DNA from: Patescibacteria group bacterium
GTDB lineage: Bacteria; Patescibacteriota; Minisyncoccia; Phycocordibacterales; UBA918
Direction of reading: 5' to 3'
Assembly (NCBI GenBank): GCA_039188945.1
Contig: JBCCYW010000002.1
Coordinates: 26,449 to 90,448 of the forward strand
DNA length: 64,000 nucleotides
Both the position numbers and the translations under genes were made by a program. How positions within the stretch are numbered: the first letter of the stretch is position 1; every line of letters starts with the position of its first letter. Shown here in pieces: positions 30,641-46,341 of the stretch. Below the pieces are notes generated by a model that saw only the letters and a list, made by a program, of their open reading frames with translations, had not been told where the DNA came from and made no database searches.

Positions 30641-30715
30641 CCACCCATAGCTCAATCGGTAGAGCGCGAAGCTTATACCTTCGTGGTTCCAGGTTCAAGT
30701 CCTGGTGGGTGGACC
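30641..30715 (+). tRNA. tRNA-Ile (anticodon UAU)
   Basis: Hand-folded. Acceptor CCACCCA/TGGGTGG, D arm GCTC/GAGC, anticodon stem CGAAG/CTTCG with loop CTTATAC, T arm CCAGGTTCAAGTCCTGG, discriminator A and encoded CC. Confidence 0.7.
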
Positions 30716-38880: not shown

Positions 38881-39243
38881 TGACAACAACATACATTACT
38901 TATTCTCAAGCGGTTTTATGAGGGAGGGACAGATGAAAAACTGCGAACCATGTCAAAAGAATCGCGAACGATTTGAGGCAGGACTGAACATTTTGGTTAT
39001 AACTGCCGTCTGGATTATTAGCTGGTTTCTGAAAGAACCAGACTTCTCACAAGACGAGTGAAGCCCCGGCGACCACTCCTGGTCGCCACCGTTTTAGAGT
39101 AAGTAATAACTAACTTCAGGTTTCTGAAATTTCCTGTGAGAAGCTGGTGGAGCTACCGCATTTGAGATATGCAAGTAGACACCTTTCACCGAGCGTTTGT
39201 GTAAGCACTGCGCTCAACTGTGAAAGTCCCCCGGACTTTCACA

Positions 39244-39637
39244 GGGGATGACAGGCATCGACGGTTAGCGGTTTAAATATATGTGCAGTGTCGCAGCTGA
39301 ATACTGACTGCGTTACAACAGTGTTCACTTGTACGTGCAAAGAATAGCGTACCAAGCCCATACGCCAAGGCGTTTGGCTTCGCTCCCGCTGTAGCGTAAC
39401 TCTACGCTCGCCGAAGCGACATCAGACTACCCCACTTCTCATAAGGTAGCCCTGGTGTAATAACCATGAGAATATAGTCAACGATTGGTCAGGTCGTTGA
39501 TCGAATTTCTTATGACTCGAACCTAACGTGTTTTGTTACTTCTCAAGCTTTAGGTTTTAAATCAAAGGAGTGACTACGCACTGTAGACTCATGTATTTGC
39601 CCTAACTCGGACGGGGGTTCAACTCCCCCCATCTCCA
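39244..39637 (+). ncRNA. ssrA: tmRNA (ssrA), one-piece
   Basis: 5' GGGGATGACAGGCATCGACGG (compare E. coli GGGGCUGAUUCUGGAUUCGACGGG). The 3' tRNA-like end is GGACGGGGGTTCAACTCCCCC-CATCTCC-A, whose acceptor strand pairs with the 5' end. Candidate tag ORF GCA AAG...GTA GCG TAA encodes (A)KNSVPSPYAKAFGFAPAVA. Confidence 0.8.
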
Positions 39638-41152
39638 CATACTGGGAACCTTTAGACGGTTTCTGCTTAAATAACCTTACTGGTATTGATAGATTTCCGG
39701 TTCCAAAACCATTTTCTGGACTATACGTGATAGGTTCGTTAAAGACTAGTTTTAGAACTAGTCTTTTTCGTTGAAAATCACCTTCTATCCAGTATTTGCT
39801 TGGATTCTTCAATATAGAAAATACTGCCTGTAATGCGGTTCCAAAATCTTCCTCCTCTACATTAGATTTCTTAGTTGCAGCCAGTAGTTTTTGTCTCTCA
39901 TCATCTATTTCTTCTACGCGCTTCTCATAAGCTCTCGCCACCTTTTCCTTGTCAGCACCGGCTACTCGACTGATTAACCTGTTCTGTTCTTCATCTAGTT
40001 CCTTCAACTGTCTATGAGCTTTGTTGATCTTTGCTTTTAGTTGAGCCGCCCGACTATTCCACTCTTCAAGAAAGATAGCTTCTACTAGTCCCGTCGCATT
40101 TTCTGAAGGTTGTAGTTTCTTAAGTAAGGAAACAAACTGTTTTTCCATCTTATGACCATTGAAACTCTTCTTGCAGCTATCGCAGTTCTTTTCGTTTCTA
40201 CCTCGATAGTACGGATATTTTTTTGTCCTACCCACACTCCAACTAGCCGTCATTGGAGTACCGCATGCTTCACAACAAACAAACCCCTTAGTGGAAAGTC
40301 TGGATTATCATTCTTTCGCTTCTTGAGTATCGGTTTACCAGCAACTATTGCATCCAATTTCTCCAGAATTTCGTCATTGATAATTGCTTCATGGTGACCC
40401 TTTCTCCTATCAATATCCCATTTTGGATACTCAATATAGCCAGCATACAAAACTCTTCTTTCAATCAACCTATCGACTAACGATAAGTGTATGGCCTTTC
40501 CATCCTTGAAGTCATGTCTGGTTAGGAAATTTTTCACTTCAGTCCTACTCAGAAACCTTCCGTTTGCAAAACCCTCAAGTGCTTCAAACACTAGAACGGA
40601 CTTTATTTCATCCTTAACCAAGAGCCACCCACCCAGAGCGTGCTGCTGGCGTTTATAACCAGGTATAACAGAACCAAAAGTCCAGTACCCCTTTTCCATA
40701 CGAGCTTTCATTTTTTGTATTACCTGAACTCGATTAGTTCTTCTTTCGTTTTCATTAAATACAGCAGATATGGCCTCATGTAACCAGGTACTTTCATCAT
40801 CCTTGAATTCAAAATTTGGGGAATCAACAATGGCTCCAAGTTTTTTAAAATGATCCCTGAGTTGCCAGTGACTAATAGTATCTCTGGCTAACCTTTTTAA
40901 ATCATCGAAAATAACCACATACTCTTTGTGTCCGTTGTCAGCAATATACTCCAGCATTTCAGCCATCTTTGGTCTCTTCATGTAGTCACCACCGCCAGTG
41001 AAACTGTCAGGAAACACACGCTCAACCTTATATCCAAGTCTAGCTGCGTATTCGCGGCACCTATGTTCTTGGCTATCAAGACCATGTCCGTCATTCTTTT
41101 GACGTTCAGATGAAACCCTACAATAAATTAAAGCCTTCCTTTCCATAATCAA
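39543..41152 (-). pseudogene. Large serine recombinase, split by a frameshift
   Basis: 40250-41152 encodes the resolvase catalytic domain (ALIYCRVSSERQ, catalytic Ser) and recombinase domain. 39543-40253 encodes the zinc-ribbon CxxC...CxxC and coiled-coil region in another frame. The junction lies in aaggggtttgtttgttgtg, where frame A reads GLFVV* and frame B reads GFVCCEACG. The last roughly 30 codons are antisense to the tmRNA 3' end. Confidence 0.75.
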
Positions 41153-41352
41153 AATGTATCGTATTTAGAAAACTCCTCGTCCAAGATTCCAACAATCAAT
41201 TCTTGTAATCCATCACGAATATCTTCGATTTCTTTATCGCTTAACTTAGTTTCGCCCAGATATTTTCGACATTCTTCGATAGACAACATAAAAAGCATCT
41301 CGCCTGAGATGCCTCCTACTTTCGGTACACAACACAAGGAAATAGGAAGCAC
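41149..41352 (-). CDS. Small hypothetical protein overlapping the recombinase start (possible excisionase/RDF-like accessory)
   Basis: Overlaps the recombinase by 4 nt (ATGA). Acidic C-terminus. No family recognised. Confidence 0.3.
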   Translation of the reverse strand: MLPISLCCVPKVGGISGEMLFMLSIEECRKYLGETKLSDKEIEDIRDGLQELIVGILDEEFSKYDTF

Positions 41353-41476
41353 TACAGACTTCTTTATTCCCTGAAATTATGTGCTTAGCTTCTAACGCTA
41401 AGTTGTACTTAAATACTAAGTGGCTCTTCTGCACTCCGCAAACAGTAGTGCGTGGATAGTATTTAAAATGCAGTAA

Positions 41477-41815
41477 CTAGTTACAGTTTGTTGCTTCAGA
41501 TTTACCGACAGTGTACGTTCCATTTGAACCATTTTGAATACTCTCTTTCTCCTCTGGCAAATATGCAAACACTGTTACCTCATCGGCATTTAAAAGATAT
41601 TTGTCCCGAATGAAATCCAATGTTCGCTGATATGCTCCTGAGTTATCGATGACAACATACACTGTTTCTCTTTTACATCCAGGATATGAATCATCTCTCA
41701 CTGTTACAACCTCGTAGTCCAAAGGTTTAAACGTGCTTGTGGAGCCCAAATTCTCGTTCTGGGACTCTGGAACTAGTGAACCTATAAAGATAGGGCTAGT
41801 ATCCCAAACGTGCAA
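41477..41815 (-). CDS. Hypothetical protein (island cargo)
   Basis: 112 aa. First gene of the minus-strand island operon. No family recognised. Confidence 0.35.
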   Translation of the reverse strand: MHVWDTSPIFIGSLVPESQNENLGSTSTFKPLDYEVVTVRDDSYPGCKRETVYVVIDNSGAYQRTLDFIRDKYLLNADEVTVFAYLPEEKESIQNGSNGTYTVGKSEATNCN

Positions 41816-42011
41816 TATATAAATTTTTTCATGGTTACCGGCTTATTGTTTCTAAAGCACTATAAAACCCTCACCAAGGTTTTATAGTCCGAAGACCAGC
41901 CGGTAACCAAACACAGCCCTTGATGAGGGGTTTATAAGTTTGGTTACCGGCTTTATTCAGTTGTGAGTAGATTATGCCATAGTAATTCATGATTTACACT
42001 TTTAGTGTATA

Positions 42012-43217
42012 GTGTCCTTCATGAGCTTCTTCAATGAAGAAAACGTTCCTGGATTCATTCCTAAAGTTATGGACGGAAAGATAACTGAGTGGACTGATGG
42101 TATGGACTTCTTAGCGATTGATTTAAACCACGTGAAATGGCGTGGGAATGTTCTACCGTTATTGCGTGACCATACACCAAAACTACTTGTTGATCCTGTG
42201 ACTCACAAGGCGTTCTTTTCTGACGCAAAATCAAAAACAAACTTCCAAAAAATTGGCTATCCTGATATCGAACCTGAGTTACTGTATTCGGAAAAACGTC
42301 ACCGTTCTGAATTTATTGAACTCTCAGTGAATGAACAATTGACTGCGGGAGCAAATGCCATAATTGCACCCTACCTATACACTCCAGACACAGACGACAC
42401 AAAGTTTGCAGTTAATTTAACTCTGCTGTCAGAGACTTTGGTCTACCTGGAGCAAAACGAGATTGATTTACCAGTATTTGCAAAAATTTGTACTCACTCT
42501 CAAATACTCACCAGACAATTAGTTATTAACAATATCGTCAGTCGATACTGTGATGACTACTCTGATAGATTGGAAGGTGTCATACTGAGCATCACTGATT
42601 TCGATGCGAGAAAGAACGATTTACCTCACCTTCTTGGTCTAGCTAATTTGGTACACCAACTTCAAGCACGCACTAAAGTTCTTCTATCTCCGATGGGTGG
42701 TTACGGGGAGGTCTTGTTGGCTTTAGGGGCAGCAGCTTTTTCGAGTGGCATCCATGAAAGTGAAGGGATTACAGTCAAACAGCTCCAAGAAGGGTCTGGT
42801 GGTAGTGAACATATTCACCAACGCATCTATATTCCGGAGATTTTAAATTACATCAACTACGAGGAAGCTGCAAAAATTGGCTACGTGGGTACCTCAACTG
42901 GTTGCAACATTGACTTTAATGATTCTGAACCATCTGCGGAAACAAAAAAGAGACACTATTTAAACAACAGAGTAGCTACAATCGCTACACTTAGAGGAAA
43001 AAGTCGGGAAGAAAAAATCAATTTGATGATTGGTAGTATTTCTTCTGCACAACGATTGCTCACAAGATATATTAGAGACCATGAACTTCTAGTAAGAAAT
43101 GACTTTCACGCGCGCTGGATTCAAGTACTAGAGCAAGCTCGAACTTGGAGCGATCCAGAAACAGACAATGAAGAACTTGAGGCGTTATTAGCAGAAATCG
43201 ATAAGTCAGATGATTAA
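42012..43217 (+). CDS. Hypothetical 401-aa protein, upstream partner of the PIN protein
   Basis: No recognisable catalytic motif. Predicted cytoplasmic. Its stop overlaps the PIN gene start by 8 nt, suggesting translational coupling. Confidence 0.5.
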   Translation: MSFMSFFNEENVPGFIPKVMDGKITEWTDGMDFLAIDLNHVKWRGNVLPLLRDHTPKLLVDPVTHKAFFSDAKSKTNFQKIGYPDIEPELLYSEKRHRSEFIELSVNEQLTAGANAIIAPYLYTPDTDDTKFAVNLTLLSETLVYLEQNEIDLPVFAKICTHSQILTRQLVINNIVSRYCDDYSDRLEGVILSITDFDARKNDLPHLLGLANLVHQLQARTKVLLSPMGGYGEVLLALGAAAFSSGIHESEGITVKQLQEGSGGSEHIHQRIYIPEILNYINYEEAAKIGYVGTSTGCNIDFNDSEPSAETKKRHYLNNRVATIATLRGKSREEKINLMIGSISSAQRLLTRYIRDHELLVRNDFHARWIQVLEQARTWSDPETDNEELEALLAEIDKSDD

Positions 43218-43671
43218 GATTGTTCCAGACACAAATGTCTTAGTGGGGAGCATGCTTGGCGGAGGAGGACCGAAGCGTTGGGTAATCAATCTAGCTCTCG
43301 AGAAAAAAATAGCTCTCTATGGTTCTTCGGTCTCTTATGCTGAATTTATGGATGTCATTCAGCGTGAAGAATTCAAACCATATCTTGAGAAGCAAATTTA
43401 TACTGTTGAGAAATTAGAGCATGACTACAAATCAGTCATTACGATAGTTGATACTGAAGGTGTTTATGAAGGAATTACCATTACTGAAGACCCAGATGAT
43501 GACGAATACTTTAGAATCGCAAAAGCTGAAGGAATAAAAGTTATTGTTTCTGAAGATAACCACTTAAGGAAAGTAGGGAGATACGAGGATATTAGAGTAG
43601 TGACAGCAAAACAATTTACAGACTCCTACATCTCAGCTATCGCAAAGACTGAACATCCTTCTTCAAACTAG
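43210..43671 (+). CDS. PIN-domain protein (putative toxin-antitoxin toxin component, PIN family, TIGR00305-like)
   Basis: IVPDTNVLVGSML first acidic motif, ITEDPDDDEYFRIAKAEG, and IVSEDNHL: conserved Asp/Glu positions of PIN nucleases. Confidence 0.7.
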   Translation: MIKIVPDTNVLVGSMLGGGGPKRWVINLALEKKIALYGSSVSYAEFMDVIQREEFKPYLEKQIYTVEKLEHDYKSVITIVDTEGVYEGITITEDPDDDEYFRIAKAEGIKVIVSEDNHLRKVGRYEDIRVVTAKQFTDSYISAIAKTEHPSSN

Positions 43672-44320
43672 CGCTCCAAAAATACTCTGAGGCGTAATCC
43701 CTTTTATTTAAATTGAAAGGCGTAATCCTTTTTGCAGCGACTGGATAATACTTCGCTTCAGTATCAACATCGAAACCAATCAGCCCAACTCCATACTTCC
43801 TAACTTCTGATACTGGTATGTTTTTAATTATCTTACTAGGTACCGCCAAATAAGATCTATGTGCGAATGATTTATAACGAGCAGCCTGCTGTAGACCTTT
43901 TTTCCAATCATGAAGTTTTGCTTCAATAGCAATGAGTTCTTTCGATATAGGTAGCCATCCGTTAATTTTCAGATAGTAGCTTTTTTCCACCTCTCGAATA
44001 TATCCAGCTTTTTTTAGCCTCGGGATAACAGAGTACCTCAATGTTCCTCTGGACATTGAGATTTGTGCTTCGATTTCTGAGATATGAGTTGGTACATCCG
44101 TATGTTCGTAGTCGGCAATCTTATCCAGAATTTTAAAGTAGTTCTCACTGAGAAGTCTCGTGTGTTGATTATGTCCTAAGCGCTTCAATACCTTGCCTCT
44201 GTTGGGTTTAAATAAAACTAAATCAGCAATTCCATAACCAACACCAACCTCCCGATTGGTGTAAAAACCATCTTTAATGAACTGTTTTTCTAATTGCCTA
44301 ACGAAAAATGCTTCGGTCAT
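43637..44320 (-). CDS. PD-(D/E)xK-like nuclease-fold protein with a possible inserted winged helix
   Basis: GIADLVLFK and LIAIEAK segments resemble motifs II/III of Hjc/restriction-endonuclease-like folds. By-eye assignment only. Confidence 0.35.
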   Translation of the reverse strand: MTEAFFVRQLEKQFIKDGFYTNREVGVGYGIADLVLFKPNRGKVLKRLGHNQHTRLLSENYFKILDKIADYEHTDVPTHISEIEAQISMSRGTLRYSVIPRLKKAGYIREVEKSYYLKINGWLPISKELIAIEAKLHDWKKGLQQAARYKSFAHRSYLAVPSKIIKNIPVSEVRKYGVGLIGFDVDTEAKYYPVAAKRITPFNLNKRDYASEYFWSASLKKDVQSLR

Positions 44321-44334
44321 ACAATGGCCATTAC

Positions 44335-44826
44335 TTATACTCTAACATTTTGACTAATTACAGGTGAGACAGTTGTATACACTGGCTCAGAGTGCGAAAA
44401 TTCATTCGGCATCTTCCACTTCAAATACGCCAAAGCTGCCCGCCAGTCTCCCTGCATCGTGAATGCATCAATAAATGCCTTCCTTGCTGACAACGTGGGT
44501 GTCATCCTGAAACTTTCGAGAGTGTTGCGAAATTCAGGATGTTTAGCACTAAAGCGATAGAATGAATCTCTCGAAATACCTGCGTAAAAACAAGCCTCTG
44601 TTACTGTGCAGTCGATGGCGAACGCACGTGCCAATTTCACAACAACTACCCCCGGGTCTACCCCTCCGAACGTCTTTCTACCTCTAGTGGTATTACTCGG
44701 TGTTGACACACATTTATCGGTTACTGCATCGGTGCAGTAACGTATAGTTCTATCTAACTCTTGGAGAGTTAGTATTCTATTACTAGTATGTGTATGTAAT
44801 GGAGTACTAATATCAAGCAAATACAA
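44335..44826 (-). CDS. HTH DNA-binding protein (phage terminase small subunit-like HTH)
   Basis: EACFYAGISRDSFYRFSAKHPEFRNTLE resembles the HTH of phage TerS/P27-type proteins. Confidence 0.35.
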   Translation of the reverse strand: MYLLDISTPLHTHTSNRILTLQELDRTIRYCTDAVTDKCVSTPSNTTRGRKTFGGVDPGVVVVKLARAFAIDCTVTEACFYAGISRDSFYRFSAKHPEFRNTLESFRMTPTLSARKAFIDAFTMQGDWRAALAYLKWKMPNEFSHSEPVYTTVSPVISQNVRV

Positions 44827-44979
44827 GGTTATTCTTCTCTTCTCCCTGCTCCTTTAGAACCACGTGCATATCAAATATCCACTGCTGCAATACATCCCAG
44901 TTCTCCCGCACCGTGTCCACCAATCTCTTCTTATTTGAACACAAAACCCTCACTTAACAGTGAGGGTTTTGTGTAGTAT

Positions 44980-46113
44980 CTAGATTTCTCTCAAAATATC
45001 TACCAGCTTTCTATTGACGTAAACTTTCTGTTTTTTGAAAGTCCCTGAATGTTCGATTACTCCAAGTTTTTCTAATATCTCTACGTAACGCTGAACAGTA
45101 GACGAAGGGATATCAGTGAATCTAACAATAAATGGAACAGTGAAGAAAGGATTGCAGAAACTGTAATCCAGGACTTTAATCAAGTTAATGTTTGTTGACT
45201 GAGCAGTCGCTTTTTCAAAAGCATCTTTATAAAGCGAATCAATTTTTAACACCAACTGTAGTGAAAGTTCTGCCTGAAACTGAATCCCCTTCAAGAAAAA
45301 CAGCAACCATGTCTTCCACTCCTCCTTTTTATCAACCTTAGAAAGTGCATCCATGTAATCACTTTTATTTTCTTCAAAATAACCACTTGGATACAAAATC
45401 GGCATATCAAGTAACCCTTGATCAACCAAATAGAGAGTGATTAACAGCCTACCGACACGTCCGTTACCATCTTCGAAAGGGTGAATTGCCTCAAAGCGAT
45501 GATGAATAACACCACACGCAACTAAAGGATTAGTCTTACCTGCATCTTTTACATATGAGGATAGTACTTCCATCATTTTTGGAACATGAACAGGATCTGG
45601 CGGTAAATAACGTGCTTTACCTTTACTTGTTCCCAACTTACCAATCCACACCTCTTTCTTCCGATACTCTCCAGGACTTTTATCTTCACCTCTCACACCA
45701 GTCATTAACGTCTTATGCATTTCACGAATTGCCATTTCATTTAACCCATACTTCTTCAGAGCTACTAACCCCTTCCTCATTGCAGACTCATAGTTTCTAA
45801 TCTCTAAAGCATCATTTCGCTTCTCAGCGGTCTGCTCAGTAAGATCAATTTGATACGCGTCTACAATGGAGGCCTGAGTTCCCTCAAGCTGAGAACTTGA
45901 CTCTGCTTCCTTTGCAAGAATAGGTGCCATAAGTAAATCAGGGTTCTGTAATAACCTTGAAGTTTGTAACAAACTCTTAACAGCACCCTGTGTTTCTGCA
46001 AGTTGATTCGCAAAATCTTCATCATAGATTTCACCTAACTTTGGAGGGAAAACGTGTTCTAAAAGTGTTTTTGACATTAACCCGAATATAGCATTTTCTG
46101 GGTTAATTGTCAC
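44980..46113 (-). CDS. Fic-family protein (AMPylase/adenylyltransferase), class II with N-terminal inhibitory motif
   Basis: Fic motif HPFEDGNGRVGR. Inhibitory-helix motif SSQLEG matches [ST]xxxE[GN]. C-terminal winged-helix extension. Confidence 0.85.
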   Translation of the reverse strand: MTINPENAIFGLMSKTLLEHVFPPKLGEIYDEDFANQLAETQGAVKSLLQTSRLLQNPDLLMAPILAKEAESSSQLEGTQASIVDAYQIDLTEQTAEKRNDALEIRNYESAMRKGLVALKKYGLNEMAIREMHKTLMTGVRGEDKSPGEYRKKEVWIGKLGTSKGKARYLPPDPVHVPKMMEVLSSYVKDAGKTNPLVACGVIHHRFEAIHPFEDGNGRVGRLLITLYLVDQGLLDMPILYPSGYFEENKSDYMDALSKVDKKEEWKTWLLFFLKGIQFQAELSLQLVLKIDSLYKDAFEKATAQSTNINLIKVLDYSFCNPFFTVPFIVRFTDIPSSTVQRYVEILEKLGVIEHSGTFKKQKVYVNRKLVDILREI

Positions 46114-46341
46114 ACATTAACTCATAACTGGGTTGATCTCAACTCATCGACCCATAAATACAAAAATCTGACTTGGTGTTTAAAGTCTAAGAAGTCATTG
46201 ATTGTATTGCGATTTAACCAATTTTCTATATATTGGTTTAGGGTGCACAGATCTCCACATAACGGAAATTAAAAGCTAGCTTTATGCTGGCTTTTAATTT
46301 TGGTGTAGTATAGAAAATACAATAATACTTTTGACTGCATT

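Follow-up and report, generated by a model that had tools for sequence, protein, structure and literature searches.

A probable genomic island with a large serine recombinase at the tmRNA gene of a Patescibacteria genome

The stretch of DNA analyzed here, called the window, comprises 64,000 nucleotides (64 kb) from a Patescibacteria group bacterium (assembly GCA_039188945.1, contig JBCCYW010000002.1), and all positions given below are those of the window unless another locus is named. We conclude with high confidence that 39642-46250 is an integrated, non-viral genomic island of about 6.6 kb of a Patescibacteria genome (proteins MEM93364xx). It follows the 3' end of the transfer-messenger RNA (tmRNA) gene, ssrA, and its first gene encodes a large serine recombinase (LSR). 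A preliminary description of this DNA, made from the sequence alone, had proposed an integrated tmRNA-site island driven by such a recombinase and carrying defence-type cargo. This proposal is supported by the association of the recombinase family with tmRNA and tRNA genes (here, t(m)RNA genes), by a displaced terminator and by the direct repeats of related islands.

The island and its boundaries

The tmRNA gene was placed on the plus strand at 39244-39638 by ARAGORN, with the encoded tag AKNSVPSPYAKAFGFAPAVA, and at 39244-39640 (+) by a full-length match to the Rfam model of tmRNA (ssrA; RF00023, 111 bits). CCA is absent from the gene, whose 3' end reads ...CATCTCCACATA / ...CCCCCCATCTCCACATA, and the tmRNA and the genes of the left flank have their best matches in Patescibacteria (Saccharibacteria-like) genomes. 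The island that follows (6,609 bp) has a GC content of 39.6%, compared with 47.4% for the rest of the window. In 221 segments of the same size taken elsewhere in the 64 kb, GC content has a mean of 47.5%, a standard deviation (sd) of 0.9 and a minimum of 45.7%, which puts the island about 9 sd below them.

The window contains exactly two copies of the 11-mer ATCTCCACATA, at 39631-39641 (+), the attL core, and at 46251-46261 (+), the attR core, with a spacing of 6620, and the match stretches to 15 of 18 nt around it. The AT-rich segment of about 6.6 kb bounded by 11-bp direct repeats, as reported after the tmRNA by the preliminary description, is thus confirmed. The left copy spans the last 8-9 nt of the tmRNA, that is the acceptor-stem 3' strand and the discriminator, and 2-3 nt beyond, while the right copy lies at the step in GC content, a few nt before a strong hairpin. 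The block of identity takes in the acceptor 3' strand from its second base on; to the left of this block, the T-loop differs between attL and attR. We conclude that ssrA is the integration target and is intact after integration of the island.

The hairpin just right of attR (46265-46301, +) has a 16-bp stem followed by UUUUGG (-24 kcal/mol, z -6.8). In island-free tmRNA genes of the candidate phyla radiation (CPR; L107, L041, L007 and L114), the layout AATTAAAA-stem-loop-stem-TTTTAATTTTG is found within about 10 nt of the tmRNA end. As the hairpin matches this layout, the right flank looks like the native ssrA terminator displaced by 6.6 kb, suggesting, at the level of sequence, that the insertion pushed it away.

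At the other end of the tmRNA gene, and outside the island, a perfect 12-bp hairpin with a 3-nt loop (39218-39229/39233-39244, +; -21.6 kcal/mol, z -4.9) abuts the first base of the tmRNA. Its presence, already noted before, was confirmed at 39218-39244, and it probably has a role in the leader or in processing, or else marks where the upstream transcription unit ends. A tRNA-Ile(TAT) gene, whose anticodon is unusual in bacteria, is found at 30641-30715, a few kb from smpB-ssrA, and also in eight related loci (L121, L144, L155, L163, L166, L171, L173 and L175); this recurrence near the locus suggests a conserved local synteny in the lineage.

A recombinase family at t(m)RNA 3' ends

A protein search with the LSR returned 2,853 homologues at E <= 1e-10, the top ones with 41-49% identity, and the homologues carry PF07508 and PF13408. 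In another Patescibacteria locus (L077), an intact homologue of 542 amino acids (aa) has its 3' end overlapping the tmRNA gene, the C-terminus of an Amesbacteria homologue (L001) likewise overlaps its tmRNA gene, and a 516-aa homologue (L121) overlaps the tmRNA gene by 44 nt, beside smpB. We then scanned metagenome contigs with the family alignment, which gave 80 LSR loci, 48 of them assessable; in the other 32 the contig ends at most 420 nt from the LSR without a callable t(m)RNA gene beside it. At 45 of the 48 assessable loci, a t(m)RNA gene lies on the opposite strand and its 3' end overlaps that of the LSR gene by 20-88 nt. The RNA gene is a tmRNA in 21 cases and a tRNA in 24, with tRNA-Ala the commonest (12), followed by Thr and Leu (3 each), Tyr (2), and Glu, Arg, Ile and Phe (1 each). 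Consistent with this, about 80 of the 119 top homologues end in ...VEMxG[IV]EP..., which is the antisense translation of acceptor stem plus T-arm.

The islands related to that of the window measure 3-8 kb and carry different cargo, and they have direct repeats of their own at t(m)RNA 3' ends: 21 nt in L139 (7.7 kb), 19 nt in L153 (tRNA-Ala, 6.1 kb), 13 nt in L163/L166 (6.4 kb), 11 nt in L121 (5.7 kb) and 10 nt in L144 (3.1 kb).

If the segment were not an insertion, it would be old, AT-rich and strain-stable chromosome, with a coincidental repeat and a recombinase left over from something else. Several points weigh against an insertion and in favor of such a chromosomal origin. The 11-mer alone is weak and could be due to chance, as 11-mers recur at an appreciable rate (about one match at <=1 mismatch is expected in the window), and the integrase gene is broken (see below). 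An empty attB was found nowhere by scans with the flanking transporter, SmpB and metagenome sequences, for a species known from one sample, and no circular or attP form was observed. Specifically, an exact look-up of the flanking AI-2E transporter gave no match and no empty site. Its homologues at 75%, 61% and 57% identity lie in unrelated contexts, not adjacent to a tmRNA gene, showing that the synteny around the transporter is gone already at 75% protein identity. An exact-match scan of JGI metagenomes with a 26-mer over the repeat and the right flank found nothing, and the SmpB look-up returned only the Logan contig L120 (run SRR22824305). The 26-mer of the tmRNA 3' end, with at least 119 matches over many phyla in a scan of the genome collection, was too generic, and nonetheless gave island-free CPR tmRNA ends and two LSR-occupied ends. 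Since the species is known from one sample, the failure to find an empty site leaves that question undecided rather than negative. On the other side, the repeat is significant because of where both its copies lie, at the tmRNA end and at the GC step with its hairpin; for any tmRNA-end-overlapping 11-mer recurring within 20 kb, about 0.1 chance matches were estimated. The drop in GC, the resemblance of the hairpin right of attR to the native tmRNA terminators of island-free relatives, and a family that sits on t(m)RNA 3' ends with different cargo and its own repeats argue further against an undisturbed chromosome. In the closest relative, L059, LSR-like sequence also follows the tmRNA gene directly, on a contig that stops 50 nt past this gene. 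We consider an origin without insertion extremely improbable.

An insertion could also be a degraded prophage, or a helper-dependent phage satellite in which a terminase-like protein redirects packaging. The island encodes a 163-aa helix-turn-helix (HTH) protein resembling terminase small subunits and transposase HTH domains (44335-44826, -; terminase small subunit phrog_4102, E 6.7e-8), the LSR matches a phage integrase (phrog_95), and three LSR homologues occur in viral contigs. These three, however, are the only ones confirmed among the 2.9 million contigs of IMG/VR, compared with at least 464 in metagenome contigs. Moreover, the HTH gene is not common to the related islands, which span 3-8 kb, and profile scans of the 6.6 kb found no virion, replication or conjugation genes, with capsid, tail, portal and large terminase all lacking. 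A phage origin is accordingly improbable, and we retain the reading of a non-viral island integrated at ssrA.

Several further observations concern the family. Distant members (39-45% identity) overlap tRNA genes for Thr, Leu, Tyr, Phe, Glu, Arg and Ile at their 3' ends (L177, L180, L194, L195, L197, L198, L201, L204, L207, L210, L142 and L187), and the identity of the target tRNA seems to shift with the divergence of the LSR. Among the 80 metagenome contigs (L131-L210), the 32 that end within 420 nt past the LSR 3' end have, like the contig of L059, a break at this junction of the kind expected if the presence or identity of the island varies within populations. Seven Patescibacteria tmRNA genes (L121, L152, L163, L166, L171, L175 and L202) were overlooked by ARAGORN and scored 67-120 bits with the Rfam model; counts based on ARAGORN only therefore understate both the number of CPR tmRNA genes and their association with LSR genes.

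In one subgroup of LSRs (P0018, P0026, P0061, P0072, P0085, P0094, P0097 and P0102) the antisense-t(m)RNA peptide is replaced by a conserved tail, V[DE]..SWNxLxSWVFEAS. In L129 (9394-12376) and L130 (1285-5224), a Prim-Pol/AAA_25 gene precedes an LSR with this tail, and ParB_N and a second LSR follow it. This arrangement could mean that the element is a free replicon in the attP state, that copies are arrayed in tandem or that the target is a different one. Six related loci carry the Rfam LOOT RNA motif (RF03000), on which almost nothing was found in the literature, upstream of their LSR gene (L121, 8796-8918; L152, 7375-7495; L163, 5621-5752; L166, 7726-7857; L167, 6777-6890; L171, 181-302). 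The motif is inside the mapped island in L121 and L163/L166 and is missing from the island of the window.

The integration module and the frameshift in the recombinase gene

On the minus strand, the LSR gene is located right at the element's edge and points outward over the att site. It is divided into two ORFs that match consecutive positions of the integrase profile phrog_95. The N-terminal part (40250-41152, 300 codons; phrog_95 84-377) contains the resolvase catalytic domain (PF00239, E 2.7e-21, residues 7-156) and the recombinase domain, and the C-terminal part (39543-40253, 236 codons; phrog_95 391-560) contains the zinc ribbon, the coiled coil and a C-terminal block. The product of the first ORF is MEM9336407.1 (298 aa), with a probable start at the ATG at 41146, and the reconstructed LSR has 536 aa. 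The second ORF enters the tmRNA gene antisense for 99 nt (39543-39641), or 33 codons including the shared repeat, and the tail encoded in the chromosome, ...SQYVEMGGVEPPSELGQIHESTVRSHSFDLKPKA*, is supplied by the antisense tmRNA. The first gene of the island had therefore been correctly described as a large serine recombinase with its 3' end antisense into the tmRNA.

The catalytic domain, and the recombinase domain followed by a zinc ribbon, are those of a large serine recombinase; the single uninterrupted frame is missing. In an alignment of 29 sequences that includes the window copy, R12, S14, S15, R87 and R90 are invariant, as are C294 and C297 (CxxC) and C324 of the zinc ribbon, and the window LSR keeps all 55 invariant columns. 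Its best NCBIfam match is CcrB (E 2e-15; CcrC, E 2e-9), and its only two matches in the PDB are N-terminal resolvase-type domains, including the catalytic domain of TP901-1 integrase (E 4e-8). We also observed that the third zinc-ligand cysteine (position 318; 40190-40205) is a glycine in the window LSR (YYRGR, where more than 90% of homologues have YYRC), and that a CDSC motif downstream (C327) supplies an alternative second CxxC pair. The enzyme may tolerate this glycine, or decay may show here for a second time.

The two ORFs are separated at a G4/T3 run (G_GGT_TTG, 40280-40287, -; GGGGTTT covers 40281-40287). On the minus strand, CTA AGG GGT TTG TTT GTT GTG is translated as LRGLFVV... and meets a stop after 9 codons (upstream frame, ...DFPLRGLFVVKHAVLQ*), whereas the -1 frame reads ...VCCEACGTPMTASW... 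and holds the CxxC of the zinc ribbon. The frameshift seen earlier at the zinc-ribbon boundary is thus real in the assembly. One added G or T yields ...DFPLRGFVCCEACG, which fits the family consensus DFPLRGFVxCxxC, and an intact allele would be expected to read GGGGGTTT or GGGGTTTT at the run. All the other best homologues (119 of 119) are single uninterrupted proteins of 502-578 aa with at least 92% query coverage, so that the frameshift is private and not a conserved programmed shift. From these comparisons we concluded that a recent private deletion of one base is responsible. As the catalytic and recombinase domains are now split from the zinc ribbon and coiled coil, the loss of this base has most likely immobilized the island recently.

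The preliminary description had left a pseudogene, a programmed shift and a sequencing error side by side. A sequencing or consensus artefact, or a variant within the population, is the principal alternative to a private deletion. In that case the LSR would be intact and the island still mobile. The shift sits in a homopolymer run, both halves of the LSR are otherwise undamaged with all family-invariant residues kept, and the genome was assembled from the metagenome of one run. The Logan contig L120, obtained with a different assembler, is 100% identical over 7,520 nt, frameshift included, which argues for the sequence as it stands; yet the two assemblies that agree on the frameshift share one read set, which counts against our interpretation and keeps a read-level error or variant in play. 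Runs of 4 and 3 nt are short, and Illumina chemistry, if that was the platform, rarely misreads runs of this length. Taken together, we regard an artefact or variant as rather unlikely. A functional frameshift, in which ribosomes slip by -1 on G_GGU_UUG to make low levels of full-length LSR and so throttle the integrase, is very improbable. The zero-frame G GGT TTG (40286-40280, -) does exactly fit the slippery heptamer X_XXY_YYZ, the product LRGLVCCEACG would keep the length and spacing of the family, and no decay is seen in the remaining LSR gene. However, the other 119 best homologues are all unsplit, shuffled sequences fold as well as the 82 nt downstream (z 0.00), and no Shine-Dalgarno-like element was seen, on direct reading of the sequence, 10-14 nt upstream, the usual spacing of such a stimulator for -1 frameshifting. 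As a feature of the family, programmed frameshifting was rejected, given homologues in one frame and no downstream structure. The private one-base deletion is therefore the reading that we favor.

Directly upstream of the LSR gene and in the same orientation, a gene for an acidic protein of 49 aa (41149-41298, -) was recognized by tblastn and by the gene call in L120. Among 85 related loci, tblastn detected it at this position in at least 38. Throughout the family, no other gene is shared together with the LSR, and the remaining cargo of the window does not recur in those islands. The element thus appears as a two-gene integration module with variable cargo. Directionality factors of about 58-73 aa accompany some phage LSRs, and the 49-aa protein may be a directionality factor or regulator of the integration module.

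Based on this anatomy, we propose that the LSR, probably aided by the 49-aa protein, would recombine the attP of a circular element, with the 2-bp crossover that characterizes large serine recombinases, with an attB in which the ssrA T-arm and acceptor 3' strand are followed by the spacer that leads to the terminator of this gene. The predicted partner sites are TTTAGGGTGCACAGATCTCCACATACTGGGAACCTTTAGAC for attP and TTCAACTCCCCCCATCTCCACATAACGGAAATTAAAAGC for attB, and the predicted junctions are ...GGTTCAACTCCCCCCATCTCCACATAACGGAAATTAAAAGCTAGC... for the empty attB and ...GGTTTAGGGTGCACAGATCTCCACATACTGGGAACCTTTAGACGG... for the circular attP. The repeats of tmRNA islands share ATCTCCAC or an equivalent, and the crossover should accordingly lie within it, in the acceptor 3' strand. 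One observation disagrees with this position: the repeat of L163 would narrow the crossover to ATCTC, although it reconstructs an odd tmRNA 3' end, and for this reason the position is not firmly fixed. The tmRNA 3' end would be regenerated because attP carries ATCTCCACATA, and the native ssrA terminator would end 6.6 kb away after insertion.

Integration would also exchange the tail of the recombinase, which in the reconstructed circle would end ...SQYVEICAP*. Among homologues the tails vary in length and sequence, and in either state the ORF runs on for a few to about 30 codons before its stop. Considering these variable tails and the early stop in both states, a functional role for the antisense-tmRNA tail was dropped, and the swap probably just follows from the compactness of the int-attP module.

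About 100 nt past the tmRNA end, in the LSR gene, a hairpin with an 11-bp stem and the loop UUAG is followed by U5 (39741-39771, +). It is antisense to the codons of a conserved LSR motif, KRLVLKLVF. A comparable hairpin is found in roughly a third of the relatives, with two-sided changes in the hairpin-bearing members L132, L174 and L164, while other members encode the same peptide without a hairpin. A family-wide test on 67 distinct sequences gave values hardly higher than those of shuffled ones, 57.7% against 56.1% for paired positions and 0.141 against 0.122 for a weak covariation. As a working hypothesis, the hairpin could serve as a replacement ssrA terminator in a subset of the family.

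Cargo genes and relation to known systems

Beyond the integration module, a small ORF (41477-41815, -; 112 aa at most, 74 aa as called in L120) has no family matches and is not shared with related islands. It is followed by three genes that form a cassette (42012-44320). The first (42012-43217, +) encodes a 401-aa protein with about eight close homologues, none of which has Pfam domains. AlphaFold, supplied with an alignment of these homologues, gave a confident model (pLDDT 81, pTM 0.83) that identifies the predicted fold as that of the tRNA-guanine-transglycosylase (TGT) superfamily, a TGT-type TIM-barrel. The eight homologues have no invariant cysteine, such as the zinc cluster of base-exchanging TGTs would call for, and share an invariant DTDD at residues 126-129, a candidate counterpart of the TGT catalytic aspartates. 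Among the 353 representatives returned by a profile search are proteins of about 680 aa that carry a protein kinase at the N-terminus. The second gene (43210-43671, +) overlaps the stop of the first by 8 nt and encodes a PIN_3 nuclease-domain protein of 153 aa (PF13470, E 2.4e-9; TIGR00305). A VapBC-like toxin-antitoxin pair was rejected, as the upstream overlapping gene encodes this TGT-fold protein and not a DNA-binding antitoxin of about 70-100 aa. The third gene (43637-44320, -), convergent with the PIN gene, encodes a 227-aa D...ExK protein with a central insert, in which D33, E133 and K135 are invariant with respect to cassette homologues at 58%, 47% and 26% identity. It had no match in Pfam or PDB profile searches, and a single-sequence AlphaFold model was unusable (pLDDT 41); judging from the motif, it is a candidate PD-(D/E)xK-like nuclease.

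The same trio, with a TGT-like gene, an overlapping PIN_3 gene and a convergent gene for 226-230 aa, is found in two other CPR contexts (L211-L214; 8001-10309 in L211 and 8001-10279 in L213), in each case with an LSR gene within about 7 kb. In L129 (1063-3775), the gene immediately upstream of a 227-aa protein homologue encodes a 686-aa protein-kinase protein, which falls in the size class of the kinase-bearing representatives of about 680 aa. The cassette may thus be a portable nucleic-acid-directed module and is a candidate defence, addiction or modification system.

On the far side of the HTH gene, a Fic AMP-transferase of SoFic type (44980-46113, -; 377 aa; PF02661, PF13784) is encoded, with the active-site motif HPFEDGNGRVGR and the N-terminal inhibitory motif SSQLEG. 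It matches the PADLOC SoFic model (PDLC03963) with E 1.2e-101 over positions 11-359 of 361, and the PDB structures of SoFic (3EQX/3ZCN) with E about 1e-30 over residues 41-374. Just past its stop, a perfect 16-bp hairpin (44939-44974, -; -26.9 kcal/mol, z -7.8) likely terminates the Fic transcription unit. The earlier assignments of the cargo (PIN, PD-(D/E)xK-like, phage-type HTH and auto-inhibited Fic) were each upheld by these profile and motif results. Two considerations, though, temper a defence role. Fic scores 161 bits where the NCBIfam equivalog ProtAdlyltaseSoFic demands 550, which makes it a SoFic homologue and not an equivalog, and it is homology that suggests a defence function for the cargo as a whole.

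Taken alone, the locus is modest news, as the kind of element is known and this member is probably immobilized; what gives it value is the entry it offers to the recombinase family and to the new TGT-fold cassette. We see about an even chance that these recombinases, found here mostly in Patescibacteria, form a large and apparently undescribed clade whose natural attB sites are tmRNA and tRNA 3' ends, tRNA-Ala being the commonest tRNA. Its two-gene module would shuttle 2-6 kb of defence cargo among the reduced genomes of CPR bacteria, including the new TGT-fold/PIN_3/PD-(D/E)xK-like cassette, with the LSR tail swapped on integration and the KRLVLKLVF codons acting as a replacement terminator in a subset. 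The 45 members located on t(m)RNA 3' ends indicate that serine integrases can specialize on such targets. If true, the clade would overturn the working rule that these enzymes avoid tDNA targets, and the long-standing question of how integrases choose their sites becomes testable with defined attP/attB pairs. The islands also illustrate how ultra-small CPR genomes gain and swap defence genes. In addition, a native unidirectional integrase with a landing site (ssrA or tRNA-Ala) in nearly every genome is a potential tool for Patescibacteria, which are hard to manipulate genetically.

Several known systems resemble parts of this island. SCCmec CcrA/CcrB/CcrC and the integrases of TP901-1, A118, Bxb1 and phiC31 have the same order of resolvase domain, recombinase domain, zinc-ribbon CxxC and coiled coil; they target protein-coding or intergenic sites (orfX/rlmH, comK, groEL1) and not RNA genes, and the similarity of the window LSR to them is very low outside the catalytic domain. 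Among the cargo, Fic resembles SoFic of Shewanella oneidensis in its full-length match, Fic motif and inhibitory helix, and differs by many mismatches and a score below the equivalog cutoff. The 401-aa protein shares about 8-13% identity with the TGT-superfamily proteins DpdA (Dpd system, 7UI4) and Cap10 (CBASS, 9NTN). Unlike these, it has no Pfam TGT match and no conserved zinc-site cysteines, its partners are PIN_3 and a PD-(D/E)xK-like protein or a fused N-terminal kinase, and the island has no 7-deazaguanine synthesis genes.

With the classical t(m)RNA islands of tyrosine integrases (Williams 2002/2003; Islander), the island shares a 3' target, a restored RNA gene, an integrase gene at the edge and a displaced fragment or repeat; it differs by a recombinase of the serine family and by a short repeat of 11 bp, and a tyrosine recombinase (Phage_integrase) was absent from the nine island ORFs scanned against Pfam, NCBIfam and PHROGs. 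According to Islander (2014, PMC4383910), only tyrosine integrases were known to target tDNAs. In the TIGER survey (2020), t(m)RNA genes were the site of 14 of 297 elements with a serine integrase, a use that, as its authors wrote, no one had reported before and that would call for proof by experiment; they reasoned that the tDNA bias must stem from something specific to the tyrosine-integrase mechanism. We found no description in the literature of the CPR LSR family or of targeting across t(m)RNA genes.

The closest parallel is with the ssrA-GIs of Dehalococcoides, including vcr-GI (McMurdie et al. 2011, BMC Genomics 12:287, PMC3146451), which are low in GC and bounded by ssrA and a 20-bp repeat. 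Their first gene beside attL, on the reverse strand, encodes DsiB, a CcrB-like serine recombinase of about 540 aa; its 3' end always overlaps attL, and the stop codon is found only outside the island, in ssrA (PMC3146451). The island of the window is similar in its low GC, in the LSR next to attL with its 3' end in ssrA, in being like an integrative and mobilizable element without transfer genes, and in an LSR of comparable size (536 aa as reconstructed) that also has CcrB as its best NCBIfam match; the likeness to DsiB is drawn from the published description. The hosts belong to different phyla (Chloroflexota for Dehalococcoides, Patescibacteria for the window), and insertion occurs midway in the T-loop with a 20-bp repeat in the former, in contrast to the acceptor 3' strand with an 11-bp repeat in the latter. 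The Dehalococcoides module has six genes (DsiB, the small serine recombinase DsiA, RecF-like, ParB, Mom and an embedded tRNA-like gene), whereas that of the window consists of the 49-aa protein and the LSR only; the island ORFs gave no matches to a second resolvase, ParB, RecF or Mom, and ARAGORN no tRNA in the island. Tandem arrays as in Dehalococcoides are not seen in the window, where neither a further copy of the tmRNA 3' end (<=5 substitutions in 21 nt) nor a second LSR was found, and that arrangement was dropped. The cargo also differs, with reductive dehalogenases on one side and defence-type genes on the other. The statement of the preliminary description that a serine-recombinase type of island was not a described element is consequently valid only in part: the design was known from the ssrA-GIs of Dehalococcoides (PMC3146451), while its occurrence in the Patescibacteria lineage, the minimal module and the clade targeting both tRNA and tmRNA genes are new.

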